From: an uncultured Candidatus Saccharibacteria bacterium
GTDB lineage: Bacteria; Patescibacteriota; Minisyncoccia; UBA6257; Colwellbacteraceae
Length of the DNA stretch: 53,620 nucleotides
Assembly: GCA_964518695.1 (NCBI GenBank)
Contig: CAZFGN010000002.1
Location: 1-53,620, forward strand
Direction: 5' to 3'
In this document: one piece after another, positions 27,486 through 44,191 of the stretch
Numbering within the stretch: the first letter of the stretch is position 1
How the letters are laid out: each line of letters opens with the position of its first letter
The notes under the pieces: model-generated
What the model was told of the DNA's origin: nothing
What the model saw: the letters and a program-made list of their open reading frames with translations, nothing else
The model's database searches: none
Program-made: the position numbers and the translations under genes

Positions 27486-27494
27486 TTATCCACA
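27486..27494. promoter_or_regulatory. perfect DnaA box TTATCCACA in the rpmH-dnaA gap (a 7/9 box TAATCAACA follows at 27497-27505)
   Basis: This is an exact match to the TTATCCACA consensus, 68 nt upstream of the dnaA ATG. Confidence 0.7.
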
Positions 27495-42106: not shown

Positions 42107-42493
42107 CTATCCAATATTTTCATAATGTTTCACAAGACAATCTTTTTCTGATATTGTCAAGGCGAGGAGGTCAATTCTCCATCCCTTCTCATCAGAAATC
42201 TTTTCAGAAATTTCACATGCGTATAAAGAGGCCGTACGCTTTAGCTTTCTAAGCTTCGCGCCAGTCAGCTGATTTTCTGCGGTTATCAACAAGTTGTCCA
42301 CACCTTTAACATTATGCGACGTAACCGTTTTAACCTCCACAAAAACCAAAGTTTTGTCTGGCGCCCACGCTATTATGTCTAACTCCCCCCAAGGCTTAAG
42401 ATAATTTCTTGCTATTATCTTGTAACCCTTCTTTACAATATATCTACAGGCGAGATCCTCTCCCAACCTCCCAGTTTCAGATTTTGTTGTCAT
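42107..42493 (-). CDS. yraN: YraN-family (UPF0102) endonuclease-like protein
   Basis: GRLGEDLACRYIVKKGYKIIARNY...GELDIIA...LVFVEVKT is present. Confidence 0.75.
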   Translation of the reverse strand: MTTKSETGRLGEDLACRYIVKKGYKIIARNYLKPWGELDIIAWAPDKTLVFVEVKTVTSHNVKGVDNLLITAENQLTGAKLRKLKRTASLYACEISEKISDEKGWRIDLLALTISEKDCLVKHYENIG

Positions 42494-42563
42494 TGTTTCA
42501 CAATTTACAAACATTACAATAACGATATGTTACATCGAGCAACATCAAAACGAAAGTTTGCTA

Positions 42564-42579
42564 TGTAAAACGTGAAACA
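42564..42579. promoter_or_regulatory. parS-like 16-mer TGTAAAACGTGAAACA
   Basis: It matches the widely conserved parS palindrome TGTTNCACGTGAAACA at 14 of 16 positions, and the right half CGTGAAACA is perfect. Confidence 0.3.
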
Positions 42580-42868
42580 ATGCATACAAAACTTATGGTA
42601 CACGATTACATAAGAGGTTTGGTAGAAGAAGAGGGTTGTTTTGTCTTCACTTCAAACGGTCAAAAAAAAGAGAATAGGAGCGCCTCGTTCCAGCTTAGAA
42701 TGCATAATAGTTCCACTGTTGCATAACAACCTGATAGGGCACAAGTCCATTCAATTTAATAGCTGGCTGGAAAAAATTGGCAGCAATCCTGATATACCGG
42801 AAAGTTACAAGCTACTTTACCGTCTACATAGATCTGGTTTCTATAACGCTAACAATAAATTTCTTTAA
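42580..42868 (+). pseudogene. LAGLIDADG homing endonuclease remnant (frameshifted, internally deleted)
   Basis: Frame 1 reads MHTKLMVHDYIRGLVEEEGCFVFTS...ASFQLRMH and then stops at 42724-42726. The frame of the track ORF (42641-42868) continues with PLLHNNLIGHKSIQFNSWLEKIG, resembling the distal PL.g.K...F..W segment of LAGLIDADG enzymes. Confidence 0.55.
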
Positions 42869-42901: not shown

Positions 42902-42929
42902 ATAGAATTGCCGATTGCCGGATAGAATT
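42902..42929. repeat. ATAGAATT / TTGCCGR repeat cluster B
   Basis: The sequence is ATAGAATTGCCGATTGCCGGATAGAATT. The heptamers are TTGCCGA (42908-42914) and TTGCCGG (42915-42921). The 13-mer ATAGAATTGCCGA recurs at 43236-43248. Confidence 0.8.
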
Positions 42930-43068
42930 ACAGAATGACATCAATCAACTAATTTCTAGTAAACACAGGCATCGTTATAAAAATGGATTTTACAAAAAGG
43001 AGAGTTATTTTAGCGATTAGTCGTCGTTATAAATGTTTCACGTACACACAAGCTTTTTTAAAAATCCA

Positions 43069-43178
43069 AAAAACGCAGTATCCATGCACTTATCGGGCTA
43101 TGCCATGTTTGCAATGTTTTACGCTTGTGTCAAATGTTTTACAAAAGACCGCAAAAACTGAAAAACGCAGTATCCATG
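43069..43178. repeat. 18-nt direct repeat AAAAACGCAGTATCCATG (two copies, 92 nt apart)
   Basis: Exact copies lie at 43069-43086 and 43161-43178. Two AATGTTTTAC motifs lie between them. Confidence 0.85.
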
Positions 43179-43207
43179 AGGTTTCCAGATAACCGCATAA
43201 ATACTAA

Positions 43208-43290
43208 TTCGGCAATCATTTCAAATAGTTGCCGAATAGAATTGCCGACTGTTGCCGGTTGCCGAATCCGCCAGCTGGCGGATTGCCGAA
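43208..43290. repeat. TTGCCGR heptamer array (5 direct + 1 inverted) with embedded 20-bp perfect palindrome
   Basis: The direct copies start at 43229, 43242, 43252, 43259 and 43283. The inverted copy TTCGGCAA is at 43208-43215. The palindrome AATCCGCCAGCTGGCGGATT is at 43265-43284. Confidence 0.85.
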
Positions 43291-43307
43291 TTAAATTTGA
43301 TCAACTA

Positions 43308-43695
43308 CTAAACACCGAGCCTGCGTTCTAGGCTCATGTAATAATTGAGAGCGTCCTCAAGATCGGTATCCGTAAAGTCAGGCCATAATTTTTTGATAAA
43401 GTAGAGCCGTAGGTACCTAGTGTCCCGCATCATAAACCCAGCGCTTAGATGTGATTCGGCGCCCGTCATTTAAATTTTATTAACAGCGTAAAGCATTTCC
43501 CTGTCTCCATTGTAACCGATGAGCAAGGTGAGATTATAACTATTATAATTCTGCTAAAGCCGCTTTTATTATGCTAATAGTTCTCTCGCCAGCCTTATGC
43601 CCCTGCCAGGCTAAAAACTTGTGCTGTATTGCCCAACGCCTGTTACCGTCAGGAGTGATAGCTAGATGGCCTATTTTCTTCTCCGTATTCTGCAA
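43308..43695 (-). pseudogene. uppS: undecaprenyl-diphosphate synthase (UppS-family) pseudogene with large internal deletions, a frameshift and in-frame stops
   Basis: The N-terminal fragment (43543-43695) reads KKIGHLAITPDGNRRWAIQHKFLAWQGHKAGERT, then stops. In the +1 frame come LTLLIGYNGDREMLYAVNKI, a stop, then TGAESHLSAGFMMRDTRYLRLYFIKKLWPDFTDTDLEDALNYYMSLERRLG. These match the UppS blocks H.AIIMDGNGRWA, GH.aG, NYGGR, RTGGE.RISNFLLWQ..YaElyF...WPDF and RERRFG. Only about 125 of roughly 240 residues remain. Confidence 0.7.
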
Positions 43696-44191
43696 AGAAT
43701 TTTATATAAATCTCTTTTAATAATTTCGCGTCTTCCAGGGCATTATGCTTTTTATATTTAGTTGGATCAATACCCAAGTCGTTCAAGAACTCTTGATTAG
43801 TGGAAAATCTTGGATTCGTGCCTGCGCCGAAGAGTATTGAAGCGAAATCTATCGGTATCCAATAAGCCGGGTGATTATCCATGCCGAAAAGTTTGTACCA
43901 GTAGATGGCATCGAATTGGTTCACGTAAGAGACTAGATAGGGCGTGGTGGGGCCCACAAAGTCTCTGATTCTCTCTTTGGCCTCTTCTCGGGAAACCCTA
44001 GGTCCTGTGAAATAAGGAATTACATTTTCTTTCACCCAATCACTTACTTCTCCATCGTGTTGTATTTCTATATAAAATTCCTCGCCGTTCGGCTTAACAA
44101 GCCCAACAGATAAAAGCTCTCCCTTATACGGGTCCAAATCGGAAAACTCCGTGTCGAAAAATATAATGTTTTCTGAAAATGGTTTTAACAT
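43649..44191 (-). CDS. DEDDh-type 3'-5' exonuclease
   Basis: The Exo I motif is FFDTEFSDL and the Exo III motif is HNALEDAKLL. Confidence 0.6.
   Translation of the reverse strand: MLKPFSENIIFFDTEFSDLDPYKGELLSVGLVKPNGEEFYIEIQHDGEVSDWVKENVIPYFTGPRVSREEAKERIRDFVGPTTPYLVSYVNQFDAIYWYKLFGMDNHPAYWIPIDFASILFGAGTNPRFSTNQEFLNDLGIDPTKYKKHNALEDAKLLKEIYIKFFAEYGEENRPSSYHS

Follow-up and report, generated by a model that had tools for sequence, protein, structure and literature searches.

Word arrays flanking a putative chromosomal centromere in a Colwellbacteraceae genome, and a winged-helix protein that may read them

What function is served by the clustered short repeats in a non-coding gap of 1.1 kb near 43 kb of contig CAZFGN010000002.1 (assembly GCA_964518695.1)? 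The stretch of 53,620 nt that was analysed, here called the window, belongs to a genome of the Colwellbacteraceae (G000; a 674-kb assembly in 64 contigs, 98% complete), which was compared with 401 genomes of the order (251 genera), 53 of them in the source family. A first reading of the letters alone (the sequence-only reading) had described iteron-like arrays of the heptamer TTGCCGR around a palindrome, and had offered either the scar of a lost mobile element or a still-functional protein-binding array, such as a partition site or a multi-site operator. The latter proposal is strengthened by synteny, by adjacency to parS sites and by covariation with a second array that lies inside a gene on contig C37. 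We propose that the arrays are the cognate sites of the winged helix-turn-helix (wHTH) protein encoded by that gene, placed both beside the centromere and within the protein's own coding sequence; judging from sequence comparison, which supports it strongly, we put the probability of this reading at about 0.62. The arrays themselves are non-random, conserved in synteny and confined to two loci, and they covary with the wHTH gene and are phyletically tied to it. Such a pairing of word arrays with a wHTH protein has not been described before, and would be a system of cis sites and a DNA-binding protein tied to a centromere of the candidate phyla radiation (CPR).

The core word is defined here as the hexamer CGGCAA/TTGCCG and the heptamer as TTGCCGR, with both strands scored. 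Seven direct TTGCCGA/G words are located on the plus strand at 42908, 42915, 43229, 43242, 43252, 43259 and 43283, all coordinates having been correct on re-checking, and an inverted copy is present at 43209-43215, within TTCGGCAA (43208-43215). The 13-mer ATAGAATTGCCGA occurs twice, at 42902-42914 and 43236-43248, and the 20-bp palindrome (Table 1) is exact. These eight words form two arrays of about 100 times the genome density: the core is found at 1.12 per kb genome-wide, and six cores occupy 86 nt in array 2 (Poisson P = 1e-9) and eight occupy 439 nt in both arrays together (P = 5e-8). By itself the heptamer is a common word, with 394 copies in the assembly (0.58 per kb) and 46 in the window where 14 are expected from shuffles, so that the clustering is the feature that matters. 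The genome-wide count that had been suggested as a check of enrichment accordingly has two outcomes, in that clusters are rare whereas single heptamers are not. At least three heptamers within 100 nt are found at only two loci of the assembly, the window arrays and C37:1994-2225; if the hexamer core is counted in spans of 150 nt, C50:1844 and C15:7552 also reach three, and none beyond the two main loci exceeds that number.

Alignment of 19 sites from both loci gives the full motif A[T/A]TCGGCAA[T/C], with an A at position -3 in 19/19. Words of 7-10 nt are separated by 1, 4, 7, 13 or 18 nt and occur in both orientations; array 2 includes a convergent pair, ATTCGGCAA-N13-TTGCCGAAT, at 43207-43237, and outer inverted arms of 13 nt (TAATTCGGCAATC / GATTGCCGAATTA). 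That no convincing open reading frame (ORF) covers the region is borne out, the short ORFs being without a conserved frame, and conservation with relatives takes the form of motif blocks between which the indel lengths do not divide by three. The idea of a wider regulon in G000 was also rejected, since isolated word pairs elsewhere are within chance, with 7 where about 4.4 would be expected per arrangement.

The sequence-only reading had recommended a search for a Rep-, ParB- or HTH-type protein that covaries with the motif, and a candidate is encoded on C37. The word cluster on this contig lies within an ORF of 215 aa (C37:1730-2377), of which residues 148-196 match Pfam HTH_DeoR with 26 bits against a cut-off of 21. 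According to an AlphaFold2 model based on 50 homologues (mean predicted local distance difference test score, pLDDT, of 81), residues 7-97 would form a four-helix bundle (pLDDT 98), residues 115-138 a disordered linker and residues 143-206 a canonical winged helix. The modelled bundle resembles the S23p-type structures 2gsc and 2rld (Foldseek E 0.01-0.16, target template-modelling score 0.63-0.69), and the modelled winged helix resembles many repressors as well as the archaeal centromere-binding protein AspA, with weak E-values. Residues 1-101 have no family match in Pfam, a PDB sequence search with the family profile found nothing below E 0.03, and NCBIfam gives weak HTH matches only. The family is single-copy and occurs in 37/53 genomes of the family and 200/401 of the order. 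Existing annotation, in Candidatus Colwellbacteria and related groups, knows it only as hypothetical or as 'DeoR family', and the latter label does not describe it well: DeoR-family regulators have an N-terminal HTH and a C-terminal sugar-phosphate sensor domain, whereas here the HTH_DeoR match is C-terminal, a sensor domain is absent and the N-terminus is the predicted four-helix bundle.

On the evidence of codon choice, the word within the wHTH gene is under selection at the DNA level. The G000 gene contains 11 cores where 0.72 are expected from the genome density and where synonymous-codon shuffles that keep both the protein and the codon usage give 1.8 +/- 1.2 (0/2000), and about 30 homologues give the same outcome. 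The cores occupy all three frames and both strands, and are read as RQ/LP, as SAI/IAE/FAA/SAT or as IGN/NGN/GCR. Of 71 Arg-Gln pairs in 28 homologues, drawn from several families, 60 are encoded by CGG-CAA, a choice made for 12% of such pairs in the remaining long ORFs of G000; among 42 homologues examined, about 28 have CGGCAA as their most frequent 6-mer.

In G000 the wHTH gene is followed by a spacer of about 300 nt (C37:2386-2693), in which a terminator-like stem accompanies a long GC-closed hairpin (GAGGCGAG...CTCGCCTC). The next gene (C37:2694-4800) encodes a protein that exceeds 700 aa and combines a signal peptide and a coiled coil with a peptidoglycan-binding-like segment. The pair of wHTH and surface-protein genes is kept in G011, G017, G145, G312, G064 and G055, and a surface-protein gene is found downstream of the wHTH gene in 7/7 checked genomes that retain that flank, from three families. 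Divergently upstream lies a stand-alone gene for an S23p-type four-helix bundle, both in G000 (C37:1278-1646, minus strand) and in G017 (L070:970-1329).

The nature of the window locus follows from its relatives. Within the family the gene order exonuclease(-uppS)-spacer-yraN-rpsT recurs, and some 250 nt of the spacer align with the window in exact blocks. In 17/53 family genomes the palindrome TGTTTCACGTGAAACA is clustered in this syntenic spacer and nowhere else, in 2-8 copies at intervals of 40-80 nt, and TGTTTCACGTGAAACA is the consensus parS site to which ParB binds (PMC7383237). ParB is encoded in nearly all of these genomes, the ParB_N gene of G000 being C3:15910-16215, and dnaA lies 15 kb from the locus both in the window and in G011. 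Since relatives carry their parS cluster here, ParB is encoded and dnaA is close by, we identify the locus as the chromosomal centromere spacer. The words and the 20-bp palindrome do not themselves match the 16-bp palindrome TGTTNCACGTGAAACA, and a mismatch scan of the G000 assembly found no canonical parS; what remains are half-sites and GTRAAACAT boxes shared with G011, G009 and G044. A perfect 14-bp parS core is absent from 36/53 family genomes and from several closed genomes of the order as well. In G000 the parS sites have either diverged, or their cluster has been lost or was left unassembled.

Arrays occupy the same position elsewhere. They are found in the exonuclease/uppS-yraN spacer, beside 2-8 perfect copies of TGTTTCACGTGAAACA, in G011, G009, G044, G023, G003, G055, G013, G058, G056 and G008, where they separate the parS cluster from the flanking gene; G003, G024 and G064 have them on both sides, and arrays 1 and 2 of the window likewise bracket the parS-like core. 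Convergent pairs homologous to that of the window occur in G011, G009, G044, G075, G026 and G111. Throughout the order, yraN is kept beside the parS spacer (G011, G058, G053, G075, G026, G111, G348), and the parS cluster also abuts it in four other families, represented by G075, G026, G111 and G348. The first three of these contain clean convergent pairs AATYCGGCAA-N9-11-TTGCCGRATT; G348 has single words on both sides and no pair at N9-11 spacing. The restriction of word clusters to two loci is repeated in G011 (contig C2) and, for the word CCGGAA, in G055 and, with one further locus, in G008. The comparison with related genomes that had been called for has in this way revealed arrays at a constant syntenic position across genera and families.

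Two further observations concern the arrays in relatives. An insertion within the yraN coding sequence beside the parS cluster is filled with the genome's own word, CGGCAA or GGCCA, at L140:1800-1900 (G111), L088 (G063) and L089/L096 (G024/G064). Furthermore, contigs of metagenome-assembled genomes (MAGs) often break exactly in word arrays or in the parS cluster (G023:C64:1, G044:C10:1, G057:C28:1, G008:C65:1, G019:C5:1 and the end of C13, G068:C11:1), so that these loci, as well as the small contigs with the wHTH gene, are systematically under-assembled in metagenomes.

Conservation of about 250 nt between genera, with several inverted repeats, is also what a structured non-coding RNA would display if the words were parts of its helices. 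An Rfam search of 41.5-44.5 kb at E <= 1 gave no match, RNAalifold on four genera gave a weak energy, its covariation term being positive and hence penalising, and the conserved sequence consists of exact blocks that match known DNA sites (parS), so we regard this explanation as most improbable. The arrays might also be functionless debris, either a minisatellite produced by slippage or pseudogene fragments of the wHTH gene. Positions 42903-42920 are identical in 18/18 nt to the reverse complement of C37:2171-2188, inside that gene, which could be a trace of such an origin, and both the tandem 7-nt units and the decay of neighbouring genes are in line with it. However, the spacer has no similarity to the wHTH gene at the protein level (tblastn against the genome finds only C37), clean palindromic pairs stand at the same position in five families, both loci retain the extended consensus, in which the A at -3 never varies, and the frozen codons fall in a conserved, non-repetitive part of the gene. 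Debris is in our opinion very unlikely.

The case for the wHTH protein as the binder is based on covariation. In a given genome, the top 6-mer of the wHTH gene is also the top non-parS 6-mer of the parS flank. Three classes can be distinguished: CGGCAA (G000, G011, G009, G044), CCGGAA or ATCCGG/GCCGGA (G055, G058, G008, G013) and CGGCCA/GGCCAA (G063, G064). The similarity matrix of genes against flanks is block-diagonal by class, and the observed diagonal was reached by 0/20000 permutations, in a sample where word classes track clades. A change of word is accompanied by a change in the recognition helix: SERTLR[N/Y]DLQ pairs with CGGCAA in at least eight families, SDRTLRNDIR with CCGGAA, and S[D/S]RTLRR[A/V]IE with CGGCCA. 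The phyletic pattern agrees, with a convergent pair in 8/9 genomes of the CGGCAA class that have the gene, and none in 25 yraN loci (80 kb) of complete genomes from six families without it; parS-like clusters are present in six of those 25 loci, and the word density there is at background. From this co-occurrence and covariation, the wHTH protein most likely reads the word.

Several points weigh against this conclusion. As word classes follow clades, the covariation amounts to some 3-4 independent switches. Four genomes with arrays, G023, G003, G056 and G057, did not yield the gene, all four being fragmented MAGs with breaks that tend to fall at repeats, and G021, G060 and G039 carry the gene but show no clear array inside it. 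G000 lacks canonical parS palindromes and two neighbouring genes are pseudogenes, so that the locus could be partly decayed and its arrays relics. Finally, the idea that the bundle oligomerises is borrowed from structural relatives with a weak Foldseek E (0.01), and the boundary role discussed below is conjectural.

An alternative that keeps the arrays as real sites is that another protein binds them, e.g. YraN, a ParB-like paralogue or a factor of another kind, the wHTH gene being merely a second target, for example as a regulatory region of the surface-protein gene. The invariable presence of yraN next to the parS spacer and the words within yraN insertions in G111 and G063 are compatible with this, as are the location of the intragenic array, 250-700 nt upstream of the conserved surface-protein gene, and the second ParB_N gene of some genomes. 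Yet yraN and parS clusters are found free of words in families that have no wHTH gene, the distribution of second ParB_N genes shows no relation to word class, and it is the recognition helix of the wHTH protein that changes where the word changes. Another binder is thus unlikely, although of the alternatives it deserves the most serious attention.

An iteron-type replication origin, or the origin or regulatory scar of a lost plasmid or phage, was the other possibility raised by the sequence-only reading, and clustered short repeats and palindromes in a long non-coding gap do recall such structures; the region also falls where the GC skew of G011 contig C2 has its broad minimum. The geometry argues otherwise, since the words are short, irregularly spaced and present in both orientations, and are not direct repeats of some 17-22 bp with regular helical phasing. 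Perfect DnaA boxes (TTATCCACA) flank dnaA, 15 kb away, at 27486 and 29061, and none occurs at 42.9-43.3 kb, where a turn of the GC skew is also absent. The ORFs within 3 kb are rpsT, yraN, the LAGLIDADG and uppS remnants, the exonuclease gene and pepP, with nothing Rep-like among them, although no dedicated search for Rep was made. The locus is, moreover, chromosomal, syntenic and conserved across families. The statement that it lies between two gene remnants proved accurate, but the remnants are those of a homing-endonuclease gene and of uppS, both intact in relatives that carry the same arrays. An origin or scar is consequently given hardly any weight.

How the proposed system would work can be sketched as follows. 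The basic binding unit would be the convergent pair CGGCAA-N9-13-TTGCCG, and the wHTH protein would probably bind the words multivalently if its bundle oligomerises like those of its S23p/Avd-type structural relatives. An oligomeric bundle with flexible linkers would place several winged helices on irregularly spaced words in either orientation, which would explain the architecture of the arrays. Bound arrays at the centromere might then act as a boundary to sliding clamps of ParB with cytidine triphosphate (ParB-CTP), or alternatively as an accessory organiser of the origin-proximal region, and the intragenic array might serve autoregulation, control of the downstream surface-protein gene, or both. 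In its most complete form, the hypothesis is that of a so far unrecognised centromere-accessory system of the order, in which an oligomeric bundle-winged-helix protein acts on arrays that bracket parS and on the array in its own gene, about 40-55 kb away and, where this can be placed (G011), across dnaA; the arrays would keep ParB-CTP clamps within a centromere of less than a kilobase and/or link the two loci, with specificity and arrays co-evolving in lock-step. This complete version is tentative, and we consider it possible rather than probable.

It is useful to compare the arrays with known systems. In Bacillus subtilis, parS is found inside the spo0J/parB gene itself, and with ParB-parS the present system shares a DNA-binding protein's site within its own gene, the syntenic parS home, the position near the origin and an encoded ParB. 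It differs in that the words have no match to TGTTTCAC-GTGAAACA, that dense words of 7-10 nt replace a 16-bp palindrome, that the putative binder is a winged-helix protein and not a ParB-type CTPase, and that G000 has no canonical parS. RacA with its ram sites organises the origin region in Bacillus. RacA-ram and Noc-NBS resemble the arrays as a second set of short sites apart from parS, near the origin and with a dedicated DNA-binding protein. However, ram and NBS sites extend across hundreds of kb, in contrast to the two compact arrays here; RacA (MerR-like HTH) and Noc (a ParB paralogue) are not homologous to the wHTH protein, and no membrane or pole function is known for the wHTH system. 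The site specificity of Noc has evolved by a few changes in its helices (PMC7383237). Plasmid iterons with an autoregulating Rep are alike in having several short repeats with one binder, some of them in or near the binder's gene, but the array locus is chromosomal with order-wide synteny, and no initiator, DnaA-box/AT-rich module or 22-bp phasing is seen at it.

A boundary role would have a precedent in vitro, where a DNA-bound regulator beside parS (TetR-tetO) blocks the spreading of ParB on one side (PMC7053999). The likeness lies in the arrays on both sides of the parS core in G000, G003, G024/G064, G026 and G348; known ParB roadblocks, including transcription factors in vivo, are incidental, whereas a dedicated and conserved boundary array would be new and is here only deduced. 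Should the arrays prove to bound ParB, dedicated insulators would for the first time be known from a bacterial centromere. As for the protein, S23p/bAvd bundles (2gsc, 2rld) have the same fold as its modelled N-terminal domain without a sequence-family match, and no described architecture that fuses such a bundle to a winged helix was found. We found no paper on parS in CPR/Patescibacteria, and the organisation of their chromosomes is essentially unstudied. The locus offers a sequence-defined, testable handle on it, with a compact parS centromere, a candidate accessory protein and the putative sites of that protein. The wHTH gene in itself is a clear example from nature of how a DNA motif can shape a coding sequence, with the word in three frames and synonymous sites frozen across the order, which matters for annotation, for the assumptions of codon models and for overlapping codes. 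The three natural specificity classes (CGGCAA, CCGGAA, CGGCCA), with their matching helix variants, furthermore provide a ready system for the study of recognition-code switching.

Table 1 Features of the yraN-exonuclease region in the window
Feature	Position	Strand	Remarks
yraN (UPF0102)	42107..42514	-	Pfam PF02021, E 2.8e-20
parS-like site TGTAAAACGTGAAACA	42564..42579		13/16 to consensus, best in assembly (genome mismatch scan)
LAGLIDADG homing-endonuclease remnant	42580..42868	+	Two frames, ~45 codons gone
Array 1	42902..42929	+	ATAGAATTGCCGATTGCCGGATAGAATT, two words
parS half-site TGTTTCACGT	43034..43043		With flanks in G044; core also in G011, G009
26-nt direct repeat, copy 1	43061..43086	+	AAAAACGCAGTATCCATG core; CATGRATACTRC on minus strand; kept in G011, G009, G044
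Three spaced GTRAAACAT boxes (parS-half-like)	43105..43142	-	Block GTAAAACATTTGAC-ACAAGCGTAAAACATTGCAAACAT nearly invariant, four genera
26-nt repeat, copy 2, and imperfect palindrome ATGAGGTTTCCAGATAACCGCAT	43153..43198	+	
Array 2	43205..43293		Six words; 20-bp palindrome inside
Perfect palindrome AATCCGCCAGCTGGCGGATT	43265..43284		Sole copy in G000 of order-wide dispersed element
uppS pseudogene	43308..43701	-	Residues 1-50 and 128-236 survive, two frames; 51-127 gone
RNase_T-like exonuclease gene	43649..44191	-	Far spacer boundary in relatives without uppS

The 20-bp palindrome inside array 2 had been taken as part of the logic of the array, a view that did not hold. Its 16-bp form TCCGCCAGCTGGCGGA occurs independently in 134/401 genomes of the order (110/251 genera), with 1-20 copies each and 0 for the reversed control. 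The copies are mostly intergenic and lie in unrelated contexts, with secY/adk, ftsK, mraZ, transketolase and a helicase among the neighbours; individual sites include the secY-adk gap, a position directly after a stop codon and before a terminator, and one upstream of mraZ. A regulon for the 16-bp palindrome was considered and dropped, the neighbouring genes being unrelated. Dispersed and mostly intergenic copies recall repetitive extragenic palindromic (REP) sequences and miniature inverted-repeat transposable elements (MITEs), but identity of a 16-mer across 110 genera is atypical for REPs, and a literature search found the palindrome sequence in no paper. Some contact with the words does exist: one of the two copies in G017 lies inside the word array of its wHTH gene, and the half-site AATCCGCCA is one mismatch away from the word AATCCGGCA of G013. 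We treat the palindrome as a separate, unexplained element.

With regard to the two remnants beside the arrays, tblastn with the intact LAGLIDADG protein of G011 aligned residues 2-43 and 89-145 in frames 1 and 2, and the intact homologue matches PF00961 with E 5e-9. A single-motif LAGLIDADG gene lies between parS sites in G011 and G019 (L003:1717-2154; L085:1394-1847), and in G019 its ATG is directly 3' of a parS. The homing-endonuclease gene looks like a resident of the centromere cluster, and the target of its enzyme may be the palindromic parS or its spacer. The uppS gene is intact beside the same arrays in G023, G044, G003 and G019; a second copy in the G000 assembly was not detected by tblastn.

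The spacer also contains a 26-nt direct repeat, of which the copies (CATGGATACTGCGTTTTT, minus strand) are 92 nt apart and adjoin an imperfect palindrome, ATGCGGTTATC..GAAACCTCAT. The box CATGRATACTRC and this imperfect palindrome are kept in G011, G009, G044, G008 and G013, and G008 has the perfect form, ATGCGGTTATC-G-GATAACCGCAT. The block of repeat and palindrome is probably the site of yet another factor.

The DnaA boxes of the window lie just upstream and downstream of dnaA, in a stretch of 35-37% GC, and three more perfect boxes of the same sequence are clustered within 40 nt on contig C1 (22641-22681). Both groups are candidates for oriC or for DnaA-titration sites.

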